Shown here in pieces: positions 5,967 to 32,008 of a stretch of DNA of 64,000 nt; the stretch's first letter is position 1, and each line of letters starts with the position of its first letter. Below the pieces are notes generated by a model. That model did no database searches. It saw only the letters and a list, made by a program, of their open reading frames with translations, and was not told where the DNA came from. A program made the position numbers and the translations under genes. Source of the stretch: a virus (taxonomy: Duplodnaviria; Heunggongvirae; Uroviricota; Caudoviricetes); IMG/VR virus record IMGVR_UViG_3300042348_001285. The stretch is one strand, 5' to 3'.

Positions 5967-6365
5967 GTGCCGTTGGGATTACCAGTCACCCTCCCGCGAA
6001 CAACGAACTAGGATCGAACCAGGGCCCGCGAGTTCTAACGCAGTAGTAATTGCGTGAGTTGAGTTGTGGGCCAGTATGTTGTGGGTTTGCGGTCCAATGG
6101 ATGAGTAGGTTGAGTTTGAAGTTATTTCGGTTATGACTCGATACGGGAGAAGTTTGAAGTTTGACATTTGTTGCTCGGGGTTTAATATCGGTGTTGCGCT
6201 TCGGGTGTTGCGCTTCGGGTGAGTTAGCCACCGGGTATCAACACAAAACTTAACATTCCGATGGCAGTTTGACGGCAATGAGTTAGCTACCAGATAGCAA
6301 CACAAAACTTAACATTCCGGTAGTAACCGGGTGCAATGAGTTTGATGACAATTAGTTAAAGTTCC

Positions 6366-6392
6366 AAACGACAAAACCCCCGTTTCCGGGGG
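6366..6392 (-). terminator. Rho-independent terminator
   Basis: Minus strand reads CCCCCGGAAACGGGGG followed by UUUUGUCGUUU, just after the stop of 6414..6629. Confidence 0.7.
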
Positions 6393-6413
6393 CGCTGTGG
6401 GAAGGTATGAGCC

Positions 6414-6629
6414 TCATCCAACCCGGCGAAGGTGGGGGGCGCTGTAGCCGTCACACCAATGCCCTTCAGGTGTGCGGCGGTAGCCCGTAATGCTCTTCGG
6501 ATTGACATAGCGGACGGGGCCCTGATGTCCGCCATCATTCTGCATACAACACCAGATGACAGCCTGTGCGGCGTCGTCGGTGACGTACTCCCAGGTACGG
6601 CCGGTAGCGTCGTCGGTAACGGTGGTCAC
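6414..6629 (-). CDS. small cassette ORF (71 aa) with a GTG start in the conserved start position
   Basis: The promoter cassette TGCTACAAT...CGGAACACACC is followed by GTG ACC ACC. Confidence 0.45.
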   Translation of the reverse strand: MTTVTDDATGRTWEYVTDDAAQAVIWCCMQNDGGHQGPVRYVNPKSITGYRRTPEGHWCDGYSAPHLRRVG

Positions 6630-7055
6630 GGTGTGTTCCGGTGCGGTACTTGCATATTGTAGCACCCTGAGGTGAGGACTGTGGCTCCTGGTACCTAGGC
6701 TCGGGAAATCGTTACGGTTCGTCACATTGCCGTGGATGTCGAAACCATGGGAAAAGCCCCGGAAACCGGGGCGGTAGTGGCGGACCCGGAAAGTTACCAG
6801 CGGGCGGCCCAGACCTTAAGCTCAGCCAGGTTGTAAGTGGCCATTGCGGTCCGGTGCGGATGACTCTGTAATTATAGCATGGTTGCCAGGGGTGCTGACG
6901 GGTCTGTGAACATTCGGTAAGTTTGCGCCTCGGGTGTGATGTTACAAAACTTAACACATCAAGGCAGGGAGTTTAACGGCAAGGAGTTTACCACGAGAGT
7001 AATACACTTGTACTAGCTCACCTAGTGGCATTACCCGGTGGCAATACCCAAACAG

Positions 7056-7079
7056 CAAAAAGCCCCGGCGAACCGGGGC
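7056..7079 (-). terminator. Rho-independent terminator (UUCG-loop hairpin plus U-run)
   Basis: Minus strand reads GCCCCGGTTCGCCGGGGC followed by UUUUU, just after the stop at 7092. Confidence 0.7.
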
Positions 7080-7091
7080 AGGGCCAGATAC

Positions 7092-7277
7092 TCAGCGGCG
7101 GTAGCAAAGTTCCCGGTGGAGTGCATTGGACTTTGCGACGCAGCCCCCAAGGCTCTCGGGGCGGATCCTGGCCTCGATGCCAAGACGACGGATGGCCCGG
7201 TGGATTTCAGGGTCCGTCATCAGGGTGGCCTCTTTCTGCCAAGCGGTGAGATCAGCGATGGTAGCGACGGCGGGCAT
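7092..7277 (-). CDS. small cassette ORF (61 aa)
   Basis: The cassette 'TATAATATGTAAGTACCGCACCGGAACGCACC' is followed by ATG. Confidence 0.5.
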   Translation of the reverse strand: MPAVATIADLTAWQKEATLMTDPEIHRAIRRLGIEARIRPESLGGCVAKSNALHRELCYRR

Positions 7278-7556
7278 GGTGCGTTCCGGTGCGGTACTTA
7301 CATATTATATGCCAGGGATGGATGGGTGTCAAGGCGCTGGGCGGTTTTGTTTGCGCCCTGTAACAATGCCGGTCGGTGAGTTTACGCTTCGGGTGTCGCG
7401 CTTCGGGTGAGTTGACTATCGGGTGCGATGTTACAAAACTTAACATTCCGATGCCAATGAGTTCGACCGCAATGAGTTAAGGGTCCAAGTAGCAAGAACC
7501 CGGATAGCAAAAAGCCCCGGCAAGGCCAGGGCAAGGCAGGCAATGGGCCGGAGCCC

Positions 7557-7808
7557 TTAGGTAAGTGCCTCGATAGACTCGATAGACTGGCTCAGCATTC
7601 CCCTCAGCAGACGCAGGGTCTCAAGGGTTTCAGGGGCAGGACGGAAGATAGCCTCGCCATCGGGCCGGTACACTTCCCTCAGGGACCCAATCAGGTTGGC
7701 CAGGGCGATTCCCTCGGTGACGGCCTTGTTCATAATCCGGTCTACCTCAGCGGCGACGGGTGTGGCGGCAGTGGTTGCCGTGAATGTGATGCCGGTTGCG
7801 GTTGCCAT
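7557..7808 (-). CDS. small cassette ORF (83 aa, begins MATAT)
   Basis: Cassette-derived Met at 7808. The ORF-track N-terminal extension is promoter read-through ('CATITESPT'). Confidence 0.5.
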   Translation of the reverse strand: MATATGITFTATTAATPVAAEVDRIMNKAVTEGIALANLIGSLREVYRPDGEAIFRPAPETLETLRLLRGMLSQSIESIEALT

Positions 7809-8194
7809 TGGTGCGGTGTCGGTTGGTGACTCTGTAATTGTAGCACAGGGCCAAGGGTGCTGTGGGTTTGCCGTTGGTTTGCCGTTGGTTTTGTTTACGT
7901 TCGGTAACAATGCCGTTGAGGGTTGGCCGCTAGGAGTAATACACTTGTACTAGCTTGCCCGGTGTTGCTCTCCGGTGTTGCTCTCCGGTGAGTTAACTAT
8001 CATGTGACAACACAAAACTTTACATATCAGGGCAGGGAGTTTGGCGGCAATGAGTTTACTGTCAGGTGGCGACACAAAACTTAACACACCATGGCAGGGA
8101 GTAATACACTTGTACTAGCTCACCCGGTGAGTTTACGCTTCGTGACGATAGGCATGGCAAGGGGGCCCGGCAGGCAAGACCCCCCTAGGCACCC

Positions 8195-8329
8195 TCAGGC
8201 CTCGCCAACGACTTTCCAGCCCTTGGGTTTCAGGCTAAGGGGACCAGTGTAGACGACTTGCTCAAGGAAACCATCGCGGTTGGTGCGCTCAAGCAGCCAC
8301 TGGCTGGAGGTGGTGGTTTTGGTGGCCAT
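8195..8329 (-). CDS. small cassette ORF (44 aa, MATKTTTSSQWLLER...)
   Basis: The cassette at 8335-8380 is followed by ATG GCC ACC. This ORF is below the track threshold. Confidence 0.4.
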   Translation of the reverse strand: MATKTTTSSQWLLERTNRDGFLEQVVYTGPLSLKPKGWKVVGEA

Positions 8330-8403
8330 TGCGGTTCGGTGGGTGACTCCCGGTTAGTGACTCTGAGATTATAGCACGGATAGGCAGGGGGGCGCAAGCC
8401 CCC

Positions 8404-8616
8404 TCAGGCAGGCATCGTGAAGTATGTATCCTCTTCGTCCCATCCTTGCTCGATAAGTTCTGCGATGCCCAGCTCCCCATCTTCCTTGGAAGGGTGCAGC
8501 CAATTCAGCTCCCAGCTCCCATCGTAGCCAACCCGGAAAGTGGCACAGACGGTACCGGGTAGGAGGTGGTAGGGGTGGCCCTCAGGGCAGTAGCAGATGG
8601 AAGGGATGGTTGCCAT
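8404..8616 (-). CDS. small cassette ORF (70 aa, begins MAT)
   Basis: Cassette at 8620-8660. Confidence 0.5.
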   Translation of the reverse strand: MATIPSICYCPEGHPYHLLPGTVCATFRVGYDGSWELNWLHPSKEDGELGIAELIEQGWDEEDTYFTMPA

Positions 8617-8700
8617 GGTGCGTTGCGGTGTCGGTTGGTGACTCTGTGATTATAGCAGGGATGGGCCAGGGAACACAAGCCCCCCCAATCCCCGTCACCC

Positions 8701-9153
8701 TCAGCCAGCAACCACAGCACCCTTGGCAACCTTACGGGGGGCACGCTTGCGGGCGGGGGCCGGTGCATCGGCGGTCACAGTGGCCTTGGTTGCCTTGGTT
8801 GCCTTGGTTGCCTTAGTCCGTTTCCGTGGTGCCGGGGCCGGTGCAGCAGCCAGCAGGGCGATAGGGCCACTTGCGGCCATCAGGACGGGAACCTCAGCGG
8901 GCACGACAATTTCCTGGAACTCAATAGCGATGCCATCGATGGCTTCAACCGTGGCCCTAGCCAGGGCAGCTAATTGGTCGTTGCGGGCATCGATTGCCTC
9001 GCGGGTTTGACAACCCAGATCATAGGCAGTGTCTGCCGTGATGGTGGCCACGGTGATGATGTAGGCGATCACAATGCCAGCAATGCGGGCAGCCTTCTCA
9101 AGGGTGGGGGCCCAATCGGCCTTCAGGATGGTTGCGATGGTGGTGGTGGCCAT
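8701..9153 (-). CDS. hypothetical protein (150 aa) with a KAT-tripeptide repeat and a basic C-terminus
   Basis: Begins MATTT. A 9-bp 'ggccttggt' DNA repeat run at 8775-8810 encodes KATKATKATKAT. Confidence 0.5.
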   Translation of the reverse strand: MATTTIATILKADWAPTLEKAARIAGIVIAYIITVATITADTAYDLGCQTREAIDARNDQLAALARATVEAIDGIAIEFQEIVVPAEVPVLMAASGPIALLAAAPAPAPRKRTKATKATKATKATVTADAPAPARKRAPRKVAKGAVVAG

Positions 9154-9200
9154 GGTGCGTTGCGGTGTCGGTTGGTTGACTCTGTAATTGTACCATACGG
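9154..9200 (-). promoter_or_regulatory. representative copy of the conserved promoter-leader cassette
   Basis: Reverse complement reads 'TGGTACAATTACAGAGTCAACCAACCGACACCGCAACGCACC ATG GCC ACC'. More than 50 near-identical copies lie between 6.3 and 31.4 kb. Confidence 0.7.
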
Positions 9201-9233
9201 CAGGCAGGGGGCGCAAGCCCCCCGTACCCGCAA

Positions 9234-9425
9234 TCACTCTGCGTCGTAACCGTCGAACCATGGGCCCCTTTGCCGTGTGCGGCGACGGGCGGTAGCACTG
9301 ATGGCGGTCTTGTAGGAAGTCTCAGGGCTTTTGCAGTGGGCTTGGGCCTCAGTCAGGGTTAGACCACGGGCAATGGTGCGATCGGGGCCGTTCATGAAGG
9401 AGCGAACGATCTTGTAGGTGGTCAT
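9234..9425 (-). CDS. small cassette ORF (63 aa)
   Basis: A TACAAT -10 box at about 9445 is followed by ATG. Confidence 0.45.
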   Translation of the reverse strand: MTTYKIVRSFMNGPDRTIARGLTLTEAQAHCKSPETSYKTAISATARRRTRQRGPWFDGYDAE

Positions 9426-9867
9426 GATGCGTTCCGGTTCGGGACCCCCATATTGTATGCCATGGGTGGCCAGGTGTCAAGGTGCCGGGTTGTTTGTTTG
9501 CATTTCGTAATAATGCTAGTGGGAGTAATACAAACGTACTAGCTTACCCGGTGAGTTTGCGCTTCGGGTGTCGCGGTCCGGTGAGTTTGCGCTTCGGGTG
9601 TCGCGGTCCGGTGAGTTTGCCGGTCGGTGAGTTTGCCGGTCGGTGAGTTAACTATCGGGTGCGATGTTACAAAACTTTACATACCGGGGCAGGGAGTTTA
9701 ACCGTAATGAGTTAGCCACCCGGTGACAACACAAAACTTAACATTCCGGTGGTAGCTTCACGGCAATGAGTTAGCCACTCGGTGTCAGCACACCATGGCA
9801 GGGGGCATGTGAAACCAGCATAAAGAAAGGCCGCCGATTGGCAGCCCTTTACTATGCGGACTTTCGT

Positions 9868-10257
9868 TCACAAAGGGTTGAGATTATCATCCACATCATC
9901 CATTCTTTCAAAGGAAGGGCAATGGAGCAGATTGCCGCTTTCCGCATACCCATCGATCACATATTGTGCGTACTGCTTAATCTTCTGCACAGCCACTTTG
10001 CTGTCTACTGTCTCCACGAACTCGCCCATGTTATAGTATGAAATCCGATCACCATTGTGGAAGTGATAAACCCTCTTTAGAATGAGGCGCATCCCGCTAA
10101 CAAAAAACTCCATATCGACTTGACATTCGTCCCCTACCCCAAAGAATACGGGAAATGTATACAAATCGTTAGGGGAGGGATTAGCCCAGGGGCTGGAATT
10201 TTCCCACTGAAGGGTAACTGAAGTCGTCCCACGAGAAATGATCGAGGAGGTGGGCAT
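9868..10257 (-). CDS. hypothetical protein (129 aa)
   Basis: Cassette at 10262-10295. Lower-GC gene body. Confidence 0.5.
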   Translation of the reverse strand: MPTSSIISRGTTSVTLQWENSSPWANPSPNDLYTFPVFFGVGDECQVDMEFFVSGMRLILKRVYHFHNGDRISYYNMGEFVETVDSKVAVQKIKQYAQYVIDGYAESGNLLHCPSFERMDDVDDNLNPL

Positions 10258-10562
10258 GGTGCGTTCCGGTTGACTCTGTAATTATAGCATGGGGCGGGAG
10301 CCTGCTGTGGGTTTCCGGGGGTTTTGTTTGCATTCCGTAATAATGCCGGGTCGGTGAGTTTGCGGTTCGGTGAGTTGACCATCGGGTGAGATGTTACAAA
10401 ACTTAACACACCGGGGCAGGGGGTTTGACCGTAATGAGTTAGCCACTCGGTGTCAACACAAAACTTAACACATCATGGCAGGGGGTTTGACCGTAATGAG
10501 TTAAACCCCCAAACAGCAAGCCCCAGCAAAGCCAGGGCAGTAGCAACAACCTGATGCAACCC

Positions 10563-10766
10563 TCAACCTCGCGCAGCCCGAGAAAAGTCCAACTCAGGGT
10601 AAACCACCAACTCCCTAGGCAGGCTGCGGGCACGACGGGCCCATGCGTACTCATCGGAATACATCGCCTCGATGCGGGCATTATCACAGGCAACGGCAGC
10701 GGTGATACGTTCACGGGCGGCAGCACGACGGTCGGAGGCGATCTGGGTGCGGTAGGTGGTGGCCAT
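10563..10766 (-). CDS. small cassette ORF (67 aa, begins MATT)
   Basis: Cassette at 10775-10800. Confidence 0.5.
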   Translation of the reverse strand: MATTYRTQIASDRRAAARERITAAVACDNARIEAMYSDEYAWARRARSLPRELVVYPELDFSRAARG

Positions 10767-10954
10767 CGGGGCGTTTCGCTTGGGACCCCCTAATTATAGC
10801 ATGGTGGGGCCTGCTGTGGGTTACTAATGGTTTTGTTTGCGTTTTGTGACAGTGCCGTGGGCAATGAGTTTGCTATCGGGTGAGTTGTAACAAAACTTTA
10901 CACACCAGGGCAATGAGTTTGACGGCAATGAGTTAAACCCCGGACAGCAAACAG

Positions 10955-10998: not shown

Positions 10999-11307
10999 TC
11001 ATGCGCAGCGGTAGAGCCAGCCAGTCGTCGGCTGAACCGGGCTAGGATCGGCCAAAATTGAAGCCAGCCATGCCCGAACACCTTTAGCGGGGGCTTTCCA
11101 GCTATCGGCTTTCAAGATGGCCCCGTCTGTCAGGCGTATAAAGCAGTAGACCGAACGCTGCGACTCGCAGGGAACACCACTGTGGATAGGCGCCATTGAT
11201 ACCTTGGCATTGCTGCGGCCCATTTGGTAGGCGTAGGCGTAGGCGCCAGCGCTCTTACTGGTCAAAATGGCGATAAAGGCATCGATCTGGGATGTGGTGG
11301 TGGCCAT
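10999..11307 (-). CDS. hypothetical protein (102 aa) of the WKAPAKG(V/I)R family, paralogous to 30961..31365
   Basis: Begins MATTT. 'FIRLTDGAILKADSWKAPAKGVRAWL' compares with 'FVDRVTGDVYKVANWKAPAKGIRYNL' in the paralogue. Confidence 0.5.
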   Translation of the reverse strand: MATTTSQIDAFIAILTSKSAGAYAYAYQMGRSNAKVSMAPIHSGVPCESQRSVYCFIRLTDGAILKADSWKAPAKGVRAWLASILADPSPVQPTTGWLYRCA

Positions 11308-11384
11308 CGGGGCGTCTCGGGTGGGGACTCTGTAATTGTACCATGGATGGGCTAGGGAACGCAAGCCCCCTAACCCCGTGGCGG

Positions 11385-11546
11385 TCAGGCGACTCTAACG
11401 TGGAGGCCCCGAGCGATCTCTTTAAGTTCGGATTCAGTGCGGAAGATCAGCATGAGCCAGAATTCTCCGGTGACTTCAAGATTGTTGGCCCTGATGACGT
11501 TCATGATGTCGTGGCGGAGGGCTTGCTTGCGTTGGGTGGCGGTCAT
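11385..11546 (-). CDS. small cassette ORF (53 aa)
   Basis: Cassette-derived start MTATQRK. Confidence 0.4.
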   Translation of the reverse strand: MTATQRKQALRHDIMNVIRANNLEVTGEFWLMLIFRTESELKEIARGLHVRVA

Positions 11547-11596
11547 GGGTGGCTCCCGGTTGGTTGACTCTGTAATTATAGCACGGGGCCGTAGAG

Positions 11597-11830
11597 TCAG
11601 CAATAAGCGTTTAGAGATCCGTATGGATTGGACGAAAGATCGAAAAAACCCTCCCAGCTTTCTGCTTCAGCGCGTGCCATTGGCATCAATGGAGAGGGTG
11701 ACTGAGAAGTGCCCCACTGGTGGCGATCATTTGCTCTAGCGAGGTGATGGTGGTGCTTAATCCTGGAGCGTGTTTCACTCCAGTAGCAAGCGGTTCCATG
11801 AAAGTAGCCGTAGCCGGTTGCATTGGTCAT
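11597..11830 (-). CDS. small cassette ORF (77 aa) with a HHHH run
   Basis: Cassette at 11845-11880. Confidence 0.45.
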   Translation of the reverse strand: MTNATGYGYFHGTACYWSETRSRIKHHHHLARANDRHQWGTSQSPSPLMPMARAEAESWEGFFDLSSNPYGSLNAYC

Positions 11831-11971
11831 GGCGGGGCGGGTGGTGGTGGTTGGTGACAGGTGAATTGTAGCATGGGTGCCGGGGCAAAGTCAGCCCCCC
11901 TGGATTCTGCGGTAAGCACGGGGGCCCGAACGGCATCCGCCGAACAGCAACCCCCCCCCCGTTCATACCCC

Positions 11972-12259
11972 TTAAAGCCCCGCAACCCTAGCAAGCTCCT
12001 GCATGGTGCAGGGGGAAGAACCCATCAGGGGCAAGATAGCAACCTCAAAATCCGAATGCAGATTCTGCCAGCGGATAGCAGCAGCGGCGGCATCTTCGAT
12101 GGACCAGCCTTCTACGGGGCCACCCTGCAGGAACCAGCGGCGCTGATGGGCGGTGGGGGTCTCAGGCTTGACGCGAGCCCACAGGCGGTAGGTTGTTGCT
12201 GGGGCGGGGGGTTGCATCGGGGCGGGGGGTTGCATCGGGGCGGCGGTTGCAGTAGCCAT
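11972..12259 (-). CDS. small cassette ORF (95 aa, begins MATATAAPMQPPAPMQPPAP)
   Basis: The cassette and a tandem 15-bp repeat encode the duplicated PMQPPA. Confidence 0.5.
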   Translation of the reverse strand: MATATAAPMQPPAPMQPPAPATTYRLWARVKPETPTAHQRRWFLQGGPVEGWSIEDAAAAAIRWQNLHSDFEVAILPLMGSSPCTMQELARVAGL

Positions 12260-12336
12260 CGTTGCGGTGTCGGTTGGTTGACTTCGGTATTATAGCACAG
12301 GGGGCCAGAGAACACAATCCCTAACCCCCCCGGTCA

Positions 12337-12546
12337 TCAGGCGGCAGCCAGGGCCAGCCAGTCGGCGGGTAGACACGTCGGATAGGGGCAGCGGCTGGTC
12401 CAGCGGACTTCTGCCCGCAGCTCGCCGCAGTCTTCCCACATGTCAACTACTTGCCCCCGCAGGCGGTTCCAGTGGAGGACGCGACCGGCGGTGTCTTCGC
12501 CGTTGTTGGCGGGGCGGACGGTGGCTCCAATGGTGATGGTGGTCAT
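12337..12546 (-). CDS. small cassette ORF (69 aa)
   Basis: Cassette at 12560-12595. Confidence 0.45.
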   Translation of the reverse strand: MTTITIGATVRPANNGEDTAGRVLHWNRLRGQVVDMWEDCGELRAEVRWTSRCPYPTCLPADWLALAAA

Positions 12547-12887
12547 CGCTGGTTGGGGGGGGGGGTGCGTTACCCTGAAATTATAGCACAGGGCCGAGGG
12601 TGCTGGGGTTGCCGGGTGTGCCGTTGGTTTTGTTTACGTTTGGTAACAATGCCGTTGGGAGTAATGCACTTGTACTAGCTTGCCTGTGGTTTGTTTGCGC
12701 TCCGGGTGCGATGTTACAAAACTTAACATTCCGATGGCAGGAAGTTTGACGGCAAGGAGTAATACACTTGTACTAGCTTGCCCGGTAAGTCTACGCTTCG
12801 TGACGGCAGGCAAGGGGCCAACATAGTGTCAACCCCATGGCATTGTCAACCCCATGGCATTGTCAACCCCTGGGCATCGTCAACCCC

Positions 12888-13127
12888 TCAAGCAGCAGCC
12901 AAGGCATCCAGGGCGGTAGCCAGGGCAGTAGCAGGGAAATAGCGGTCCTCACCTTCGCAGATGTCAGACAGGCACCAGCGGAAGCCGTTACGGGTCGCAT
13001 CAGCGGTCAGGATGTAGTCGGCACCTTTGAAGAAGGCACGGGATCCTTCACTGAATTCCACACCGGCAGGGAGGCCTTTGCGGAGAGCAGCGTTAATCAT
13101 GGTGGATGGGGTGGTTGCCGGGCCCAT
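12888..13127 (-). CDS. small cassette ORF (79 aa)
   Basis: Cassette at 13135-13170. Confidence 0.45.
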   Translation of the reverse strand: MGPATTPSTMINAALRKGLPAGVEFSEGSRAFFKGADYILTADATRNGFRWCLSDICEGEDRYFPATALATALDALAAA

Positions 13128-13398
13128 GTTGTCGTTTGGTGCGTTACCTAGTAATTATAGCATGGGGTCGAGGGTACTGTGGGTTGCCGGTGGGTGTCGA
13201 TGGTTTTGTTTACGTTTGGTAACAATGCCGGTCAATGAGTTTGCAGTTCGGTGAGTTAACTAACGGGTGCGATGTTACAAAACTTTACATATCGGGGCAG
13301 GGAGTTTGGCGGCAATGAGTTTACTGCCAGGTGGCGACACAAAACTTAACACATTGAGGCAGGGAGTTTGACGACAAAGAGTTATCGCACCGGCCAAC

Positions 13399-13422
13399 AA
13401 AAAAAACCCCGGCGAACCGGGG
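13399..13422 (-). terminator. Rho-independent terminator (UUCG loop plus U8)
   Basis: Minus strand reads CCCCGGTTCGCCGGGG followed by UUUUUUUU. Confidence 0.75.
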
Positions 13423-13449
13423 CAGGGGCAGGGCAGTATTGGGTGGGTG

Positions 13450-13662
13450 TCAGCCTACGCCTTGTCCCCAGACGGTTAAGCAGCGGTCTCGGGCGACCCG
13501 GTAGGATTCAAGCTCCCTGCGGTTAAGATCCAACATGGGGCGATAACCGTTGATACCGGCTGCACATGCCGCTTTCCAAGCAGCCTCAGCACGGTCAATA
13601 GCACATTGGGCGATATTAGCCCAAGAATCGGCGGAGATGGTTGCGGTGGTGGTGGGAGCCAT
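13450..13662 (-). CDS. small cassette ORF (70 aa, begins MAPTTTAT)
   Basis: Cassette at 13670-13700. Confidence 0.5.
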   Translation of the reverse strand: MAPTTTATISADSWANIAQCAIDRAEAAWKAACAAGINGYRPMLDLNRRELESYRVARDRCLTVWGQGVG

Positions 13663-14281
13663 TTGCCGTTTGGTGCGGTACCCTGTAATTATAGCATGGT
13701 GCAGGGGCAATTGCGGGGTGCCGTTTGATGGCGTTTGGTAACAATGCCGTTCGAGTAGTAGGTTTGTACTAGCGGACTTCGGCGGCAATTTTCGGTTCGA
13801 ACTATCGGGTGTGATGTTACAAAACTTAACATTCCGATGGCAGTTTGACGGCAATGAGTTTACCACAGGAGTAATACAAACGTACTAGCTGACTCCGGCG
13901 GCAATTTGCGGTTGAGAGTGGTACTAACGTACTACCTAACCCGGTGTCAAAATGGGGGCCACGAGGATCGGACTCGTCTTCTATTTGTTATGAGCAAATT
14001 GCATTCACCAGATTGCTAGACCCCCGTGAGTATTACATTACCCTGGCAAGTAAGTTCCGGTCACTATTCCTAGCAGCCATGGCAACCAGCACAGGCAAGC
14101 AAGCCCCTGTAGGCATGGTGCGTCCCAACCGTGCAATGAGTTTGGGGTCCTCACCAGGGAGAACGACCGGTTTCCATGGGCCCGGTGGAAAGGTGGTTTC
14201 GGTGGTCATAAGCCTGGGGGGTGACAGGTTGATTATAGCATAGGGGCCAACACAGTGTCAACCCCTCGGCAACCCCGACCA

Positions 14282-23730: not shown

Positions 23731-24000
23731 TCATGCCATGAACTTAGCAATAGCCTCTTCGGCATCGGCACCATCGGCACCATGATTTACCATAAACTCC
23801 CACATAAGGTTAGTATCACCATCGAATCGCATCAGAAGGGAATCCAACAGTTCATCTTGACTGATACCACCAGAGGCATTCTGAAGCTCTGACATCCTGC
23901 TGTCCATGGCTGCATTCCTAAGCTCATCAAGGCTCATCGAATCGACATCACGTTGGCAATGGGCCTCGGCGATCTTACGAATCAAGGATTGGTCGATCAT
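23731..24000 (-). CDS. small acidic cassette ORF (89 aa)
   Basis: Cassette at 24010-24045. Confidence 0.45.
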   Translation of the reverse strand: MIDQSLIRKIAEAHCQRDVDSMSLDELRNAAMDSRMSELQNASGGISQDELLDSLLMRFDGDTNLMWEFMVNHGADGADAEEAIAKFMA

Positions 24001-24126
24001 GGTTGCGTGTGCGGTTGGCTGACTTCGGTATTATAGCATGGATAGGCAGGGTGCGAGGGATGTTACAGGGGGGTAACAACAGGCGCGGCAAGGGGCCAGG
24101 GTTCACAACCCCGACCCCCAGGACAG

Positions 24127-24501
24127 TCAACCAAAAGCCACAATGGCCTTTAGACTGGTGCGCCACGTTCCCGGCAGCTTCTCACCACGACGACCTACGA
24201 TCACGGGCAATTCCCCGACCATCTCAACCACGGTAACAATCTCAAATACCTGCAAGGTCGCAGCCAGCCAGGTTCCAAACCAGCGAGTCCGACCCGTGGC
24301 CTTGGCAATGTAACGGCAGCCATGGGGGCCTTCCAAGGCAAACTCTCCTTCCTCAAGGCAAAGATCATGGGGCGCATCAGCCAGGACATCCCAGTGCCCC
24401 CACCAGCCTTTACGGACGCCACCAGGGGCCTTCTCGCAGGGTTCAGCGGTGTGGGAACCGGTGCGGTTGATGGGTGAGGTGGCGGCGGTTGCGAAGGCCA
24501 T
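24127..24501 (-). CDS. hypothetical protein (124 aa, begins MAFATAATS)
   Basis: Cassette at 24510-24540. Confidence 0.45.
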   Translation of the reverse strand: MAFATAATSPINRTGSHTAEPCEKAPGGVRKGWWGHWDVLADAPHDLCLEEGEFALEGPHGCRYIAKATGRTRWFGTWLAATLQVFEIVTVVEMVGELPVIVGRRGEKLPGTWRTSLKAIVAFG

Positions 24502-24593
24502 TTGCCGGGGGGTGCGATACCTTGAAATTATAGCATGTTGCCAATGGGGTCGGGGTGCATCCCAACCACAAAACTGCCTACTAGCAACAAAAC

Positions 24594-24929
24594 TTAACCC
24601 ATAATGCCCCCAGGCCAACGTCCTCCCGGCGGGGTGCGCTCTGATGGGGATAGTTCGGGTGTTTCATCATAATAGCTAGGACGCAACTTGGCGAGGCGCT
24701 CTGCGTCGGAGACGCATTGGCAGTGTGGATTGTGCCCATTTTCCGCCATATAATTAGCGCCGCGCTTTGTTCTGGATGGTCCGATAACTGCCATGTAGTA
24801 CGGGGTATTGGCTTCGGTAGGGGTAACTACCGATTTGAAAACTTCCCGGTTACCTTGGTCGTATAACAAACCCACATAGAATTTTGCCCGTTGGGGTGTG
24901 TTAGTGGTTGAGGGGGTTGCGGTAGCCAT
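24594..24929 (-). CDS. hypothetical protein (111 aa, begins MATATPSTT)
   Basis: Cassette at 24935-24965. Confidence 0.5.
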   Translation of the reverse strand: MATATPSTTNTPQRAKFYVGLLYDQGNREVFKSVVTPTEANTPYYMAVIGPSRTKRGANYMAENGHNPHCQCVSDAERLAKLRPSYYDETPELSPSERTPPGGRWPGGIMG

Positions 24930-25039
24930 CGTTGCGGTGTCGGTTGGTTGGCTTCGTAATTATAGCACATGGCCGGGTGTGGATGCGGTTCGGCATGTTG
25001 ACCCCGGGGTGTGGTGGACAGTTTGTTAAGTGTCTATTT

Positions 25040-25890: not shown

Positions 25891-26076
25891 TTATGCCCAA
25901 ATAGTATCAACCTGTGCCTGATACCCTTTCTGCTTCATCGCTTCGGCAATCCGCTGGGCCACGTTCCGATCATGGTAATCGGCCCTGGTGGTATAACCCG
26001 AAGCCCCAGAACCAGTGGCAATCAAACCAGTGGCAATCGGACTGGGGGCAATGGTGACACGGTGTAGTTGGGCCAT
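25891..26076 (-). CDS. small cassette ORF (61 aa)
   Basis: Cassette at 26085-26115. Confidence 0.45.
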   Translation of the reverse strand: MAQLHRVTIAPSPIATGLIATGSGASGYTTRADYHDRNVAQRIAEAMKQKGYQAQVDTIWA

Positions 26077-26151
26077 GGTGCGGTTTGGTGTGGTACCACG
26101 TAATTATAGCATTATGCCGTGGCATTGGCAAGCATGGGGCCGGGGGGAACG

Positions 26152-26526
26152 TCAACCCCGCCCATACTGGCGAACCCTCTCCAAATAGGTCCCCCAAACC
26201 GACGGATCCATGGCACCTGCCGTTGTCTTAAAGTGATGGGAGAAAAACGTAATGGCAAGCTCCATATTGCGCCTACCAACAGGATTAGCAGAATGAATGA
26301 CCACAGCCGGTGGAATAAACCCACCATCAAAACCATTCTCATACACAATTTGCTCAATCCACTTGCAAACATCCATGCCAGTTCCCCTAGCGTCATCCCC
26401 GAGATCATGATCCAAGGATACAACTTCGACATTGCCAGTCTTCAGCAATTCGATAACCTCATCAGGCCAATAGCAACGGACCCATCCATCAGGGGTAGGC
26501 CTGATATCATCGAGAAATACTTTCAT
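26152..26526 (-). CDS. receiver-fold-like small protein (CPR/REC-like signature LDDxR...DHDLG)
   Basis: 'MKVFLDDIRPTPDGW...VVSLDHDLGDD'. The start overlaps the stop of the cassette mini-ORF (ATGA). Confidence 0.35.
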   Translation of the reverse strand: MKVFLDDIRPTPDGWVRCYWPDEVIELLKTGNVEVVSLDHDLGDDARGTGMDVCKWIEQIVYENGFDGGFIPPAVVIHSANPVGRRNMELAITFFSHHFKTTAGAMDPSVWGTYLERVRQYGRG

Positions 26527-26564
26527 TGCCTTGGGGTTAGGTAGACTGTGGGCGTGGTTGCCAT
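26523..26564 (-). CDS. cassette-encoded mini-ORF (13 aa, MATTPTVYLTPRQ), translationally coupled to 26152..26526
   Basis: ATG GCC ACC in the conserved cassette position. Its stop TGA overlaps the ATG of the next gene. Confidence 0.3.
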   Translation of the reverse strand: MATTPTVYLTPRQ

Positions 26565-26886
26565 TGGGGAGGTCCGGTGGGTTACGGCAGGGGAATCATA
26601 GCATGGCCCTGGCAGGTTAGTTGGTGGCCCCGTAATTATAGCACAGGGGGGCCAGGCTACGGGTGCCGTTACATTCCGTAACAACAGGTACGGCAAGGAG
26701 TCACTGGATGGCAACCCCTGTAAAGAATTGGCCAGGTTGTGGGGTTATGCTTTCGCTCCTGAAGGGTAGCCAGGCGAAGAAGGGCAGCCCTGCGGCTGAT
26801 AGTCCTACTTCCATTTCCCACTATTTGCCTTCACGTCTACCTGTATTTTGGGTTGTGACCCTATTGTAGCATGGGCCGAGGCAGAG

Positions 26887-27081
26887 TCAACCCTCAGGGT
26901 CCTTGGGGCTGCTGTCATCAAGTAAAGCCATTGCGACTATGGATCCAATGAAAAGTAGAAACCATAACGTACTCAATATAGATAATAGCCCTAGGTTTCC
27001 CTTAGCTACCCAATAAGCAGCAGAGAATATGTGACATTGGGTGATAATAAACTTGGTGTTACGTTTGAGGTTTGACAGCAT
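26887..27081 (-). CDS. small membrane cassette ORF (64 aa)
   Basis: Hydrophobic 'LLSILSTLWFLLFIGSIVAMALL'. Confidence 0.4.
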   Translation of the reverse strand: MLSNLKRNTKFIITQCHIFSAAYWVAKGNLGLLSILSTLWFLLFIGSIVAMALLDDSSPKDPEG

Positions 27082-27208
27082 GGTGCGGTTGGGGGTTGGC
27101 GACAGGTGTATTATACCACAGGTCCGGCAGACAGTGGAAAGGGGCCAATGCCAACGGCACCAACCCCCCAAGCAATCGGCCAATGCCAACAGCAGCCAGC
27201 GGCACCAA

Positions 27209-27463
27209 TCAGCTAGCCACTGCAAGCAGCCGATCAGCCACCCTGCCTTTCGCAGTACGCTTCCCATCGAGATAATACAAGGTATAGACCCGCCCCGGCT
27301 TCACACTGGGGGTGACTGTGATGGCTAGGGCCTTGCCGTTGATGCGGATGGCAGTTTCGGCCTTGTTGCCAGCAGCAGCAGCAGCCACGGTATCGGCTTC
27401 GATGGTGGCGAGACGGGTAGCCAGAGTCTCAGGCTTACGGATGGTGAGAGGGGGAGTAGCCAT
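27209..27463 (-). CDS. hypothetical protein (84 aa, begins MATPPLT)
   Basis: Lies downstream of three tandem consensus promoters. Confidence 0.5.
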   Translation of the reverse strand: MATPPLTIRKPETLATRLATIEADTVAAAAAGNKAETAIRINGKALAITVTPSVKPGRVYTLYYLDGKRTAKGRVADRLLAVAS

Positions 27464-27499
27464 GGTTGTGGGTGGGTTGTGTTGTGGGGTGAATCCCTG

Positions 27500-27672
27500 G
27501 GACCTTGCTATTATAGGGTAGGCAATGGATGTTGTCAATACCCGGTTAATGGTGGCGGTGGTCTGGACCTTGCCATTATAGGCGAGACAATAGGTGTTGT
27601 CAATACCCGGTTAATGGTGGGGGCATCGGGAATAGAGCCACTATAGGCAAGGCAATGTGGGGTGCCAATACC
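27500..27672 (-). promoter_or_regulatory. three tandem near-consensus sigma70 promoters (TTGACA-N17-TATAAT) with a 65-bp period
   Basis: Reverse complement of each unit reads 'GTATTGACAACATCCATTGCCTACCCTATAATAGC'. The third copy reads TTGGCA...TATAGT. Confidence 0.7.
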
Positions 27673-28102: not shown

Positions 28103-28576
28103 TCATACCGCAGCCAACTGCCGACCCCTGGAATAGAACTGCTTACAGCCATACTTGGCCGCAATTTCATCCAAACTACCCGGATTGGAGCGGCTCCGGC
28201 CCAGCCCAGCAGGCTTCCAGAACCAGCATTTCCGGCCACTATGCCAGCGGCACCCTAGCGCCTTCAGGTCTTCCTTAACGGGCTTGGTATCACCCGTGAC
28301 CCATACCCATAACCCAATCAGGTTAATGTCCAGGTTAGGAATCTTAAGCAATTCTGCAATCTGATCCATGATAGCCTGCTCGGTTTTTTCCGTATAGCGA
28401 TAGGTGCGCCCATCGTCCTCTTGACCGTTGCAGCTTGCGAGAGCGGCATGGTAGGCAGCATTAAGGGCCTTCATGGTTTCCAGATCGCCACCAAGATCAG
28501 GGTGGTGCTTGCGAGCCAGATCACGATAGGTGCCTTTAATGGTTTCGACAGTGGTGAGGCCAGTGAAGAATGTCAT
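28103..28576 (-). CDS. J-domain (DnaJ-like) protein
   Basis: 'YRDLARKHHPDLGGD' carries the HPD motif. Confidence 0.7.
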   Translation of the reverse strand: MTFFTGLTTVETIKGTYRDLARKHHPDLGGDLETMKALNAAYHAALASCNGQEDDGRTYRYTEKTEQAIMDQIAELLKIPNLDINLIGLWVWVTGDTKPVKEDLKALGCRWHSGRKCWFWKPAGLGRSRSNPGSLDEIAAKYGCKQFYSRGRQLAAV

Positions 28577-28721
28577 TGCCGGTTCCAGGTGGTGTGTGGG
28601 AACGATGTTAGTGTAGCATGGTTGCCGGTGGGTCGTCAACCCCCCTTTTTTAGGGGAAAGGTTAAAACCGCTACCTGCTGACTCTGGAATTATAGCACAC
28701 TGCACTAAAGGCTGTGGCCCC

Positions 28722-28991
28722 TCAAGGGTAGGTAAATTTTTTGTGCAGAACAAGGGCGCATTTGGAACCCTGTGCCTTCAATGTAAGATAGTATCCGTCA
28801 TCTTTTCTGGAGCAACGAATACCTGTCCACCCGAATATCTTCTTTGCCTTTTGTACAATTTGTCTATTTGTCATACCGCCACAAGCAAACTCATCATATC
28901 TATGGCATTGGCTCACATCTTTGCCAACAAGAGTAACCTCCTCTACGCAAGCCATTTCTTTGGTTCTAAAAACAGATGGGGATGTACTCAT
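28722..28991 (-). CDS. small Cys-containing ORF (89 aa) behind two tandem cassettes
   Basis: Cassettes at 29010-29050 and 29085-29110. Confidence 0.4.
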   Translation of the reverse strand: MSTSPSVFRTKEMACVEEVTLVGKDVSQCHRYDEFACGGMTNRQIVQKAKKIFGWTGIRCSRKDDGYYLTLKAQGSKCALVLHKKFTYP

Positions 28992-29261
28992 GGTGGGACC
29001 CGGTGCGTTTAGTTGGTGGGTGACTTTGGTAGTGTAGCATGGGGCCAGGGGCAATGTCAACACCCTGGTTTTGGTCCCTTGCTTGCTGACCCATGAATTA
29101 TAGCATGTCCGGGGGCCAACTGTGGATGGCCGGGAGTTAATGCTCATGGGCCGACACATTGCCGAAGGGATTGACAAGGCTGGGGGGAGTCGCCCTATAA
29201 TGGGCAAACAATCAGAGAAGGGGCCTTGCCCACAGGTAATAGGTTATGCCACGGGGCTATG

Positions 29262-29545: not shown

Positions 29546-29653
29546 TTTGCTGTTAGTTCTCATCAGCCATCTAACTATCGTCAAGCCAATTTAAATACCA
29601 TGCCATTTTATTCCCCGAAAGATATAGTCAGTAGGTCATCACCCTATCAGCAA

Positions 29654-29860
29654 TCAGCAATCAATCCCCATAGCCAAGCACCAATTATCAAGGGCACTGT
29701 CCCAAATCCAATGGGTCTCATCTTGGAGCCATCCCTTAGGAAGCCCCAAAATATCAATAGCAGCCTCTGCCAAGGCGGTAGCACAATTGTACTCCCGAGC
29801 GTTGCCATACATCCAGCTTGAGATCGAACGTTGGTTGAAGCTTGAGATTGAGCGAGCCAT
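29654..29860 (-). CDS. small cassette ORF (68 aa)
   Basis: Cassette at 29865-29900. Confidence 0.4.
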   Translation of the reverse strand: MARSISSFNQRSISSWMYGNAREYNCATALAEAAIDILGLPKGWLQDETHWIWDSALDNWCLAMGIDC

Positions 29861-29924
29861 GGTTTCCTCCGTTAGTGACAGGGAAATTGTAGCACGGTGT
29901 CGGCGGGTTGTCAACTTATTGGCA

Positions 29925-30158
29925 TCAATCCCCTTCGGAAACAACCTCGAAGTCCACCTCAAAGGGGCCATCCCACTCCTGAGCCCACTGGGGGGCACAC
30001 TCGCCCATGAAGCGAAGATCATCCGACTGATGAGAGAATGGTTCAGGAACCGTGTCAACTACACAGACCCAAGTTGGAAGATTCCCCCGACGCACAGGGT
30101 GGGCAGTGTCCCCGACCCATTCTTGAGCCAGGAAGGTGCAGCGTAGGGTGTGTGCCAT
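29925..30158 (-). CDS. small acidic cassette ORF (77 aa)
   Basis: Cassette at 30190-30230. Confidence 0.45.
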   Translation of the reverse strand: MAHTLRCTFLAQEWVGDTAHPVRRGNLPTWVCVVDTVPEPFSHQSDDLRFMGECAPQWAQEWDGPFEVDFEVVSEGD

Positions 30159-30324
30159 TGTGAGGTCGGTGGGTTGGTTGCGTTTGGTATGAACCTATTG
30201 TAGCATGGGGCTAGCGGGACCGTCAACCCTTGAGTCTCAGGGACTGGCAATCATGGTTGCCGGTGGGTTGTCTACCGGCTGGCTTTAGCTGCCTGGCTTC
30301 GACCATCGGGCCCCGACCGGAAGC

Positions 30325-30780
30325 CTAATCAATGCAGGCAGATAGCCACCATTGGGGTTCTCCCGTGGTTTCAATCCCGAACTTTCGTACAAATTCTACC
30401 AATCTCCGATGTTCTTCCCCTGAAATTGATAGGGAATCAGGGCCCAATGATACAGGGTCACAATCGCTGCTACTTCTCAACTCCTGCACAGCTAGGATGA
30501 TACAAGGGTTCTGAGCCCATCCATATGCCACTACCTTAACAGGGACCGGATTAGATTTCAGCCATTCCCTCTGATTACGCCACCGAGCATCGGCATCTGC
30601 GCATGTAAAACCATCCTTATATTCACCTTTATCATCAAAGGGGCACTCAACAGGGTTAACGTACCCATTTACATCAACCCACCATTCTTCAATATCGCAG
30701 TCTTCATCATCAGACCAGGGGAATTCAAACCCTTCTTCAAACATGAAGCCGTAACTTAGGCCAGCAGTGGCAGAGGTCAT
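30325..30780 (-). CDS. hypothetical acidic protein (151 aa, begins MTSATAGLSYGF)
   Basis: Cassette at 30810-30850. Confidence 0.5.
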   Translation of the reverse strand: MTSATAGLSYGFMFEEGFEFPWSDDEDCDIEEWWVDVNGYVNPVECPFDDKGEYKDGFTCADADARWRNQREWLKSNPVPVKVVAYGWAQNPCIILAVQELRSSSDCDPVSLGPDSLSISGEEHRRLVEFVRKFGIETTGEPQWWLSACID

Positions 30781-30960
30781 TGGGGGGGTGCGTTTGGTTG
30801 CGGTTGGTTGGTACGGACTTATCTTAGCATGGTGCCGGGGTGGTGTCAACCCCCTAGCTTCAAGGGCTGGCAAGCACGGGGCCGATGGGAACGTCAACCC
30901 TTGGGCTTCGGGGATTGGAAACCTATCGGCAACAACCTATCGGCACCAACCCCACGGCCC

Positions 30961-31365
30961 CTATCGACTGGCATACAAATATCCCCCAGCCCAATCTGCC
31001 CGCTGATAGCAACTTTCCGGGTCTTCCAACAAATTGTAACGAATACCCTTGGCCGGGGCCTTCCAATTAGCTACCTTGTAAACATCCCCGGTTACCCGGT
31101 CCACAAAAGCATGAGCAGAGCGATTGCCGGACGTTGCCATTATGATTTTCAGATACTTGCGCCCTTCCTCCACTGAGAATGTCGGGGCATAATCCTTGCC
31201 AACCCCATTAGGATTAAACCGCGCATAGTTATCAGCCAGAACCGCGCATAGCTTGAGGGTGGCGGTGAGAACCGGGCTAGGAGCCTCAGGGGTGGTAGCC
31301 TCAGGGGTGGTAGCTTCGGGGTTGGCAGTGCCAGGGCCAGCAACCGGGTTAATCATAGCAATCAT
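30961..31365 (-). CDS. WKAPAKG(V/I)R-family protein (134 aa), paralogue of 10999..11307
   Basis: Shared motif. An N-terminal direct repeat PEATTPEATTPEA arises from a 15-bp DNA repeat. Confidence 0.5.
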   Translation of the reverse strand: MIAMINPVAGPGTANPEATTPEATTPEAPSPVLTATLKLCAVLADNYARFNPNGVGKDYAPTFSVEEGRKYLKIIMATSGNRSAHAFVDRVTGDVYKVANWKAPAKGIRYNLLEDPESCYQRADWAGGYLYASR

Positions 31366-32008
31366 GGCGGGTCGGGAACGGTGGTGTTTGGTTCCTGCCT
31401 ATTATACGCCTTAGGGGCTCAAACTGTCAAGGCATCGTCAAGAGGCCACCAGGGGAATTGCCGAGGTATTGTCAAGGCATCGTCAAGGGGCCATCAGGGG
31501 ACTTACCATAGGGAACCAATGGGCATACCAAGGGGCCACCAGGGGGCCAGAATGGCAAAAAAAAGCAAAAAGCCAAGGGACCCCCACCGAGCCGAGGCTC
31601 AGAAACCCAGTCACTGTCAGGGATTTTCCCTTACTGTGGTTGTCTTCATTTGAGAATGCCCTAGGTGGGTGTTCCTAATTGTTGTTACCAAAGTTTCAAA
31701 CCTGAAAAATTGAAAAATTTGAATTTATTATATTTTTCTAAAATACTAACACACTATAATGTCATAATGCCATAACAGTATAACACTATCGTTATACGAT
31801 CATAGAGTCATTTTGATCTTGGGGGGCACCTTGACACTACGGAACCTTAACCTCATAGTACCAACATATCGTGGCACCGTCTCACAGTAACATCATTGCG
31901 CTAACACACTATAATGCCATAACAGTATAACACTATCGTTATACGATCATAGAGTCATTAACCCTGGGGACTAAAGCGTGTCTGGGCAGGCACAGGCAGG
32001 CCCGGCAA
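31366..32008. other. about 640 bp of AT-rich non-coding region at the compositional boundary: direct repeats, palindromes, TTGACA-N18-TATAAT promoter at its left edge
   Basis: Contains 2x 32-bp 'tgtcaaggcatcgtcaag(a/g)ggccaccagggga', 2x about 60-bp 'ctaacacactataatg..ccataacagtataacactatcgttatacgatcatagagtcatt', and the palindrome GTATAAC-N6-GTTATAC. There are no ORFs. Confidence 0.7.

Follow-up and report, generated by a model that had tools for sequence, protein, structure and literature searches.

A PeSL-like array of putative early-gene promoter cassettes, probable recombination junctions in a probable picocyanobacterial jumbo phage

What could lead a phage to place one kind of promoter and start signal, dozens of times and in a single orientation, before small genes that are unrelated to one another? 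The question is raised by a 64-kb stretch of phage DNA (IMG/VR record IMGVR_UViG_3300042348_001285, Caudoviricetes; the whole stretch is called the window hereafter), in which positions 6300-31450 hold 54 promoter-type cassettes, every one of them on the minus strand. An original prediction made from the letters of this DNA had pointed to an array of more than 50 small open reading frames (ORFs) behind repeated cassettes and had compared it with the PeSLs (promoter early stem-loop elements) of T4-type phages. We think it probable, with appreciable room for doubt, that this is a PeSL-like array of early-gene promoter cassettes serving as recombination junctions in what is probably a jumbo phage of picocyanobacteria.

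Cassette anatomy and excess leader similarity

The window was scanned for an extended -10 (TGNTA..AT variants), or for TAYAAT together with a TTG-type -35, and an ORF was assigned to a cassette if it had at least 30 aa and began no more than 80 nt downstream. By these rules 46 of the 54 cassettes lead an ORF of 30-157 aa, in agreement with the predicted array, and the cassette density is one per 0.5 kb, whereas the other 39 kb of the window contain about 10 TATAAT promoters. The string TGCTATAAT occurs 27 times in the window, exclusively on the minus strand, against 0.62 expected, and 24 of these copies fall in 6.3-31.4 kb. The array ORFs are mostly ORFans (4 Pfam families were matched among 45 ORFs) and are mutually unrelated, except for one real paralogue pair, the ORFs starting at 11307 and 31365 (32% over 65 aa).

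Copies anchored on the -10 have in common TGCTATAAT, the adjoining T and GTCA at positions 7-10 downstream (core TGCTATAAT-T-N5-GTCA). The conserved core is about 20 nt long, and the cassette takes the form TGCTAYAAT, N6-GTCA, leader and, frequently, ATG GCN ACC. The near-identical cassette of 60-70 bp that had been described gives way to a degenerate family with sub-families, and the 33-nt leader quoted for it has a single occurrence, even when up to 3 mismatches are allowed. The GC hairpin or -35 ascribed to the cassettes belongs to a part of them: a TTG-type -35 at 16-18 bp spacing stands in 21 of 47 copies (about 45%; TTGACA or TTGCGY), and 24 of 47 fold at -15 kcal/mol or below in the interval -60..-1, the remaining half being without such structure. 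In many folded copies a G-run/C-run stem encloses the -35, as in GGGGGCTTGCGCCCCC. Copies without a -35 would depend on the extended -10, and in 6-15 kb they usually stand behind long composite intergenic modules. The upstream consensus is G/C- and CA-rich, and no AT-rich stretch is seen 5' of the -35. From their sigma70 consensus the cassettes would act as promoters, with transcription probably starting at the conserved G that lies 7 nt past the -10; expression would be early, and the region probably holds early "host-takeover" genes.

The leaders are composed of 44% C, 30% A, 18% G and 8% T, and the distance from the -10 end to the ATG is mostly 22-40 nt. A Shine-Dalgarno (SD)-like motif is found in 7% of them, with the start codon present. 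The second residue is Ala in 20 of 40 ORFs and the third codon is ACC in 13; ATGGCNACC has 12 copies in the array, and the minus strand of the remaining window has one. Start regions from -25 to +20 fold at -4.7 kcal/mol, compared with -8.6 kcal/mol for random 45-mers of the region (p = 6e-8), and this weak folding would fit initiation that relies on an unstructured leader. SD-independent initiation from an unstructured, CA-rich leader is thus suggested by the sequence. The CA-rich leader lacking an SD site had been put forward as a feature of the cassette. It is indeed present there, but a leader of this kind also precedes 19 large ORFs beyond the array, which are equally SD-poor, so that it looks like the general translation-start style of the phage and not a property private to the array. 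Large genes of this sort have their ATGs at 47419 (preceded by CCAACCCCGACCAACCAACCAACCAACCCA), 43693, 56876 and 33827. The resemblance to a Kozak context noted earlier did not hold up, since CACCATGG has just 5 occurrences and is a by-product of the genome-wide leader style.

We compared 42 leaders, each taken from just past the -10 to just before the ATG, with shuffles that keep their composition. An identical string of at least 10 nt was found in 95 of 861 leader pairs against 2.9 expected (shuffle maximum 8), so the copies resemble one another far more than generic promoters do. Identity of at least 16 nt was found in 18 pairs, and at most one pair of this kind came up in any shuffle. When the leaders were cut back by their first 10 nt, at least 10 nt were still common to 39 pairs against 4.3 expected. 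Sub-families of leaders exist, for example AACCAACCGACACCGCAACG (cassette at 24921..25002). Because the ORFs behind the cassettes are unrelated, identity ends at the ORF start; this drop at the boundary, which the prediction had proposed as a check, was seen, apart from the first few codons, which are C/A-rich and give an Ala/Thr/Pro-rich stretch.

Cassettes also occur in truncated and doubled form. The predicted doublets are present at 18966/18905, 26643/26603 and 29105/29039, as well as at 30.87/30.83 kb, where the first copy is degenerate, and two further ones lie at 28697/28618 and 27583/27518. Both predicted stubs were likewise found, at 6844-6794 (16 codons) and 26564-26523 (13 codons). 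The stop codon of the latter overlaps the ATG of the cREC_REC ORF (ATGA), so this stub may be a coupling leader peptide rather than a remnant. In two related contigs introduced below, the 13-codon stub (window 26518-26603) is 100% conserved (R3), and its start region is duplicated in tandem at about 3600-3680, with CCCCAATGGCAACCAC present twice (R1), which suggests replication or recombination slippage in the leader. On the minus strand at 18967-19000, CCTGCCTG/CCTACCTG units form a short tandem run that adjoins the truncated cassette 18966 on its upstream side.

Presence/absence polymorphism and junction positions among relatives

Relatives were reached through the exact 19-mer TGCTATAATTACAGAGTCA, which led to 3 viral contigs of the lineage and to 22 related metagenome contigs carrying co-oriented arrays. 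The closest relative of the window is R1, an IMG/VR contig of 279 kb, from which a 36.3-kb stretch spanning the array was assembled for comparison; R2 is a 127-kb viral contig that ends inside the array, and R3 a viral contig of 13.8 kb. Megablast searches with 20 kb and 25 kb of the window found nothing similar among 50,697 phage records.

The window and R1 form a collinear mosaic of about 27 blocks with 72-95% identity, separated by unrelated stretches of 0-1900 bp, and about 10 of 42 cassette-led window ORFs have no homologue in R1. Of 41 block ends, 22 are no more than 60 bp away from a -10, where 8.9 would be expected (0 of 2000 simulations reached 22), and 24 fall inside some dispersed repeat, against 35% expected (p = 0.002). 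Orthologues with 85-96% aa identity stand behind different cassette classes in the window and R1, and their homology sets in at the -10 or within the leader, as it does for the ORFs that start at 22863, 18315, 15781, 9153 and 7808. In one place the window has the cassette at 9460 with a 63-aa ORF, followed by the cassette at 9195 with a 150-aa ORF, and R1 has the first cassette fused to the orthologue of the 150-aa ORF. This indicates an indel of one unit of ORF plus cassette, with the joint inside the cassette.

The same pattern was seen across 25 sequences, whose 285 cassette-led ORFs fall into 95 families, 33 of them singletons. Of the 36 sufficiently frequent families, 32 have more than one downstream neighbour. 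Together with the ORFs missing from R1, this shows that synteny of the small ORFs is not perfect. By local alignment, 139 of 169 orthologue pairs that have their upstream neighbour in common remain homologous for at least 250 nt upstream; where the upstream neighbours differ, 151 of 239 pairs become homologous only from a point within -60..+10 of the -10. The pairs are not phylogenetically independent. The shuffling and capture of small ORFs proposed for this region accordingly takes a narrower form: single units are gained, lost or replaced at cassettes, slot by slot on a conserved order, and neither free shuffling nor capture at a single site was found. One family, that of the 83-aa window ORF 16578-16327, has one member in the window, two in R1 and in array L066, and three in arrays L058 and L076, and is the only family so repeated within single arrays.

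A proposed role of the cassettes as recombination junctions, competing explanations and known systems

On the reading we favour, the array would consist of about 50 mostly monocistronic units, whose extended -10 (TGCTAYAAT) would be read by the host polymerase carrying its primary sigma factor (sigma70/SigA type). Stem-loops or terminators would insulate the units from each other, and translation would begin from the unstructured CA-rich leader, often at ATG GCN ACC. The 20-40 nt repeated in one orientation before the genes would provide short homologies, within a genome or between co-infecting relatives, and homologous or homology-facilitated recombination between them could cause single promoter-plus-ORF units to be gained, lost or replaced while the order is kept. 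The sequences themselves show the anatomy, the surplus likeness among copies, the presence/absence polymorphism and where the junctions fall; from these we infer that the recombination passes through the cassette itself. Several points weigh against this reading. Pairwise gene order is consistent in 2853 cases and conflicting in 37 (98.7%). Some indels do not have their ends in a cassette, among them one of 469 bp (the 12329..12797 unit) whose ends show microhomology only, and about half of the copies are without stem-loop and -35. Promoter activity, start site and early timing are read from consensus, and the common -10 draws alignments toward itself, so that the junction positions are upper bounds; the pair counts of the upstream-neighbour comparison, moreover, are not independent in phylogeny. 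Junctions in intergenic DNA are also expected from selection for intact genes, and many of the replacements could come from ordinary recombination in shared genes on either side, with no need of the cassettes. Finally, metagenome assemblies can be chimeric at repeats, against which the identical variant orders in independent contigs speak.

The cassettes could instead be merely constrained promoter and start signals, with turnover by ordinary or illegitimate recombination and with junctions located there through selection and alignment bias. Such an explanation sits well with the genome-wide leader style, with the 766 of 861 leader pairs that share fewer than 10 identical nt, with the 98.7% consistent order and with the microhomology at the 469-bp indel. 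We nevertheless hold it to be unlikely, if worth serious thought, in view of the leader strings of 16-24 identical nt before unrelated ORFs, which are far above chance, of orthologues whose upstream cassette halves differ with a switch at the -10 or leader, and of the unit indel joined within a cassette. Truncated and doubled cassettes resemble recombination scars, and block ends are 2.5-fold enriched at cassettes over random positions.

If the boxes were read by a phage-encoded sigma factor or RNA polymerase, with N6-GTCA as part of a phage-specific promoter, this would account for the conservation past the canonical -10 into T-N5-GTCA and for the exact 19-mer being found in no cyanobacterial genome among 185,579 species genomes. 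Yet TGnTATAAT and TTGACA-N17 correspond to the group-1 sigma70 consensus given in textbooks, the same TATAAT with N6-GT context is found at promoters outside the array, and no sigma factor or RNA polymerase gene was seen in scans of the window ORFs, which makes this idea very improbable. We give still less credence to integron-like or other site-specific capture, in which ORF cassettes with their promoters would be placed at defined sites by a recombinase. The resemblance lies in the superficial picture of many small unrelated ORFs with a one-orientation boundary element, but neither the 45 array ORFs nor the 29 larger ORFs scanned include an integrase or recombinase family, promoters are present unit by unit, and variation affects all slots of a conserved order rather than the array head. 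Self-comparison of the region gave no inverted repeat, and hence nothing that resembles attC. Equally remote is the view that the repeats are autonomous small mobile elements, similar to miniature inverted-repeat transposable elements, spread through intergenic DNA: dispersed repeats do make up 32% of the array and 4% of the remaining window, but every copy has the orientation of transcription and inverted ones are absent, their positions are linked to gene starts, and neither terminal inverted repeats nor target-site duplications were seen.

A bolder proposal, which we find distinctly doubtful, is that the array is a dedicated platform for grafting and expressing genes, with repeat families that may be new regulatory RNAs or protein-binding arrays timing or insulating the units. 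An exchanged unit would then bring its promoter, start site, SD-independent leader, start codon and an Ala/Thr-rich N-terminal tag, and a captured ORF would be expressed immediately in a host that makes little use of SD sites. Candidate regulators would be the AT-rich element of about 280 bp with its own -10, the TGTTAAGTTTTGT/AAACTCA modules and the 28-nt TTCYACATTAC units.

In the T4-type phages RB49/phi1, PST/T4 and nt-1/KVP40, PeSLs are strong promoters of the sigma70 type that stand before ORFans in hyperplastic regions, and a GN-loop-CN stem-loop often covers the -35; there are about 50 per genome, and they sit at indels and replacements separating close relatives (Arbiol et al. 2010, PMC2839356; Comeau et al. 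2014, PMC4122927). The array shares with them the repeated strong sigma70-type promoter motifs before small ORFans of a hyperplastic region, degraded, doubled and "half" copies, indels or replacements between close relatives at the elements, and a copy number of about 50 per genome; a GN-loop-CN stem-loop over the -35 is seen in many copies, but about half of them have no stable stem-loop. The likeness to PeSL architecture claimed for it was therefore borne out in promoter motif, ORFan setting and indel/replacement junctions, and the array works like a PeSL array, not like a new kind of system. Its density, said to be much higher, is moderately so at one cassette per 0.5 kb, since in Vibrio phage nt-1 a stretch of 5 kb contains six ORFs flanked by PeSLs (PMC4122927). 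Unlike in the PeSL phages, no T4 core gene was seen among the 29 larger ORFs of the 64-kb window and its clamp is of the bacterial DnaN type, and the probable host is cyanobacterial. The cassettes differ as well: the -10 is extended (TGn), more than half of the copies are without -35 or stem-loop, the upstream DNA is G+C- and CA-rich rather than AT-rich, a CA-rich leader stands in place of the SD site, conservation reaches into the first codons ATG GCN ACC, and all copies are in a single contiguous 25-kb array with extra repeat families specific to it. Of the mini-circle exchange of PeSLs, the matching product alone is seen here, one unit deleted with the joint inside a cassette. What is new relative to PeSLs is the phage lineage, the probable host group, the extended -10 with optional -35 and the SD-free leader.

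With integron cassette arrays the region has in common a one-orientation array of small, unrelated and variable ORFs. The comparison with a promoter-carrying integron had to be given up, however, because there is no tyrosine-recombinase integrase among the scanned ORFs of the 64-kb window, no attC/attI or attC-like inverted repeats, no single common promoter but one for each unit, and no variation concentrated at the array head. Bacillus phage SPO1, in its host-takeover module, and T4 and T5, in their early regions, also contain dense small early genes, mostly of unknown function, with many strong host-type promoters and terminators as here, but these regions use strong SD sites, unlike the array; to our knowledge they have not been described as recombination junctions with population-level turnover of units. 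The "ORFanage" of cyanophage S-PM2 is a dispensable, variable ORFan block with one early promoter and two stem-loops, for which the one cyanophage study to consider a PeSL mechanism judged it unlikely (Puxty et al. 2015, PMC4503421). Both are ORFan blocks in cyanophages, but the array has one cassette per gene.

Modular shuffling mediated by PeSLs is documented only in T4-type phages of proteobacteria, and the later literature mentioning PeSLs in phages, among the papers found, concerned T4-like phages or was a general jumbo-phage review. The array would extend this principle to jumbo phages of freshwater picocyanobacteria, an unrelated and uncultivated lineage. Its 25 sequence variants, 285 units and 95 ORF families amount to a natural experiment in which unit-wise turnover is directly readable, and its roughly 50 natural examples of a compact promoter with an SD-free leader are candidate expression parts for cyanobacteria and a candidate model of SD-independent initiation.

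Carrier phage and other elements of the array

The larger genes of the window encode a cysteinyl-tRNA synthetase (CysRS), a DnaN-type clamp, a thymidylate kinase, a pentapeptide-repeat protein, a CCA-adding enzyme, a polynucleotide kinase and phosphatase, and an HNH endonuclease; T4 core gene families were not found among its 29 larger ORFs. The nearest cellular homologues of the CysRS (58-60% identity) are from Cyanobium, Vulcanococcus and Synechococcus, and the best phage matches of the clamp are cyanophages (26-31% identity). These homologies point to a host that is probably a freshwater picocyanobacterium of Cyanobium/Synechococcus type, and to a probable picocyanobacterial jumbo phage as carrier. 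The CysRS, the CCA-adding enzyme and the kinase/phosphatase pair (43848-45326, 56964-57713 and 60299-61681) make up a set for tRNA maintenance and repair.

In the 185,579 species genomes the exact 19-mer gave no match in cyanobacteria and 3 chance-level matches in unrelated metagenome-assembled genomes; with the 19-mer absent from the cyanobacterial genomes searched, the cassette is not a copy of a host promoter. One promoter-leader-start copy, TGCTATAATTACAGAGTCAACCACAGAGAGCCCC ATGGCC, was found at 286-304 of locus L002, which belongs to a different and smaller viral contig of 43 kb (IMGVR_UViG_3300005613_000129), and this true-looking cassette means that the signal may be common to other phages of the same hosts. 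Two further candidate carriers were rejected: in L001 (31% G+C) the 19-mer is followed by no CA-rich leader and no ATGGCN, and in L003 it lies after a terminator and before sequence that is not leader-like. One array protein, the 100-aa ORF at 18315, is shared with 38 other phage loci, and these contain no co-oriented motif arrays, with at most 2 TG[CG]TAYAAT matches each and no strict N6-GTCA form.

The positions of all array features are collected in Table 1.

Table 1 Cassettes and repeat elements of the array, all on the minus strand
Positions	Element	-10 box	Start	ORF (aa)	Remarks
31357..31444	cassette	TATAAT 31401-31406	ATG 31365	134	-35 TTGACA; DUF7717 ORF 31365-30961
30772..30900	doublet	30821-30829 (full copy)	ATG 30780	151	degenerate copy TTGACG...TGCTTGCC comes first
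30150..30240	cassette	30197-30205	ATG 30158	77
29852..29929	cassette	29886-29894	ATG 29860	68	among the few with a GGAGG Shine-Dalgarno
28983..29140	doublet	29097-29105; 29031-29039	ATG 28991	89	first copy without real ORF; TTGACA before second
28568..28732	doublet	28689-28697; 28610-28618	ATG 28576	157	hairpin CCCCT-A6-GGGGG and TTGACG between; weak DnaJ match
27455..27618	doublet	27583; 27518	ATG 27463	84	65-bp tandem duplication of TTGACA-N17-TATAAT promoter
27073..27153	cassette	27110-27118	ATG 27081	64	missing in R1
26806..26906	cassette	26863-26871	ATG 26814	37
26518..26678	doublet	26635-26643; 26595-26603		124	13-codon stub 26564-26523; cREC_REC ORF 26526-26152
26068..26146	cassette	26103-26111	ATG 26076	61
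24921..25002	cassette	24959-24967	ATG 24929	111	leader sub-family, see text
24493..24570	cassette	24527-24535	ATG 24501	124
23992..24073	cassette	24030-24038	ATG 24000	89	palindrome TGTTAC-N-GTAACA upstream
23185..23277	cassette	23234-23242	ATG 23193	61	missing in R1
22855..22936	cassette	22893-22901	ATG 22863	107	upstream half of R1 orthologue differs
21108..21189	cassette	21146-21154	ATG 21116	66	missing in R1
20781..20880	cassette	20837-20845	ATG 20789	65	missing in R1
19574..19684	cassette	19641-19649	ATG 19582	96	missing in R1
18861..19001	doublet	18958-18966; 18897-18905	ATG 18869	57	truncated copy with 12-nt leader, then GGGGGCTTGCCCCCC
18616..18689	cassette	18646-18654			no ORF of at least 30 aa behind
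18307..18385	cassette	18342-18350	ATG 18315	100	protein widespread in phages; other cassette on R1 orthologue
17878..17999	cassette	17956-17964	ATG 17886	37	terminator-like hairpin over -35
17630..17713	cassette	17670-17678	ATG 17638	62
16880..16959	cassette	16916-16924	ATG 16888	38
16570..16650	cassette	16607-16615	ATG 16578	83
16229..16320	cassette	TATAAT 16277-16282	ATG 16237	98	GGGGGGCTTGCGCCCCC
15773..15849	cassette	15806-15814	ATG 15781	116	R1 orthologue of different upstream class
14861..14935	cassette	14892-14900	ATG 14869	59
14574..14647	cassette	14604-14612			no ATG within 80 nt
14201..14275	cassette	14232-14240	ATG 14209	58	missing in R1
13654..13731	cassette	13688-13696	ATG 13662	70
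13119..13197	cassette	13154-13162	ATG 13127	79
12329..12797	complete unit	12580-12588		69	intergenic module, cassette, ORF 12546-12337; precisely missing in R1
12251..12332	cassette	12289-12297	ATG 12259	95
11822..11908	cassette	11865-11873	ATG 11830	77
11538..11618	cassette	11575-11583	ATG 11546	53
11299..11378	cassette	11335-11343	ATG 11307	102	paralogue of 31365 ORF; replacement in R1
10758..10836	cassette	10793-10801	ATG 10766	67
10249..10324	cassette	10281-10289	ATG 10257	129
9193..9495	cassette	TACAAT 9452-9457	ATG 9425	63	TTGACA; ORF 9425-9234
9145..9230	cassette	9187-9195	ATG 9153	150	bears the quoted 33-nt leader exactly
8608..8692	cassette	8649-8657	ATG 8616	70
8321..8411	cassette	8368-8376	ATG 8329	44
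7800..7880	cassette	7837-7845	ATG 7808	83
7269..7347	cassette	TATAAT 7304-7309	ATG 7277	61	TTGACA-N17-TATAAT
6794..6914	cassette	6871-6879			16-codon stub ORF 6844-6794
6621..6699	cassette	6656-6664	GTG 6629	71
13103..13423	composite module				example: terminator GCCCCGG-TTCG-CCGGGGT-T8, AAACTCA units, 1-2 TGTTAAGTTTTGT, GTTACCAAACGTAAACAAAACC, CCCACAGTA, cassette
6188-6342	composite module
6913-7021	composite module
7269-7480	composite module
7793-8157	composite module
9521-9792	composite module
10245-10538	composite module
10754-10978	composite module
12564-12815	composite module
13638-13893	composite module
14918-15052	composite module
21231-21363	composite module
15075-15392	AT-rich repeat
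17033-17314	AT-rich repeat
19759-20086	AT-rich repeat
21496-21663	AT-rich repeat
22073-22424	AT-rich repeat
25074-25272	AT-rich repeat
25542-25852	AT-rich repeat
29266-29543	AT-rich repeat

The composite modules (110-365 bp; 6188-15052 and 21231-21363) contain co-oriented sub-repeats that are nearly restricted to the array, which holds 17 of 18 copies of TGTTAAGTTTTGT, 21 of 22 of the AAACTCA type and all 6 of GCTAGTAC-N-TGTATTAC. They share a terminator, GCCCYGG-N-CYRGGGY-T(n), and stand before promoters without a -35, at a distance from the -10 that is not fixed; GCCCCGG-TTCG-CCGGGGC-T(n) terminators or stem-loops also lie between neighbouring units. For the palindromes AGTAC-N-GTATTACT and TGTTA-N7-TAACA we considered NtcA/CRP-type sites and rejected them, as the GTA-N9-TAC spacing misfits and the distance to the -10 ranges, on our reading, from 77 to about 290 nt.

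The AT-rich repeat of about 280 bp has 8 copies in the array, 4 in R1 and 1 in R3. A near-invariant 125-nt core starting with GGGTGCAGAATATGCATTCAAATGTAGAATTTT is followed by 2-3 tandem 28-nt units TTCYACATTAC-N4-AAAANGCACCC. It usually lies right behind an intrinsic terminator, the start of its core coincides with some ends of mosaic blocks, and one of its hairpin loops occurs in two orientations. Each of two distinct upstream variants puts a box resembling a -10 about 7 nt ahead of the core, and the repeat may therefore be a small transcription unit. It had no Rfam match, and the hairpins given by RNAalifold are almost invariant and thus without covariation support; Rfam on the whole array gave nothing at the gathering threshold or at E up to 1.

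The G+C content of the array is 0.48-0.57 compared with 0.41-0.47 in the rest of the window. At 6-20 kb it is 0.51-0.57, against 0.41-0.47 in most of the remaining window, and the sign of the GC skew is reversed. ARAGORN placed a tRNA-Met (CAT) inside the array at 13953-14025 of the minus strand, conserved in R1 at 15776-15850; Rfam at the gathering threshold reports only a tRNA-Ser at 62328-62412, so either the call is doubtful or the tRNA is atypical. At the array head, 31425-31545 of the minus strand, there are three tandem 45-bp units, each with TTGACG..TTGACA, and in the AT-rich non-coding stretch at 31.4-32.1 kb two identical 49-bp direct repeats lie 147 bp apart (31764-31959).

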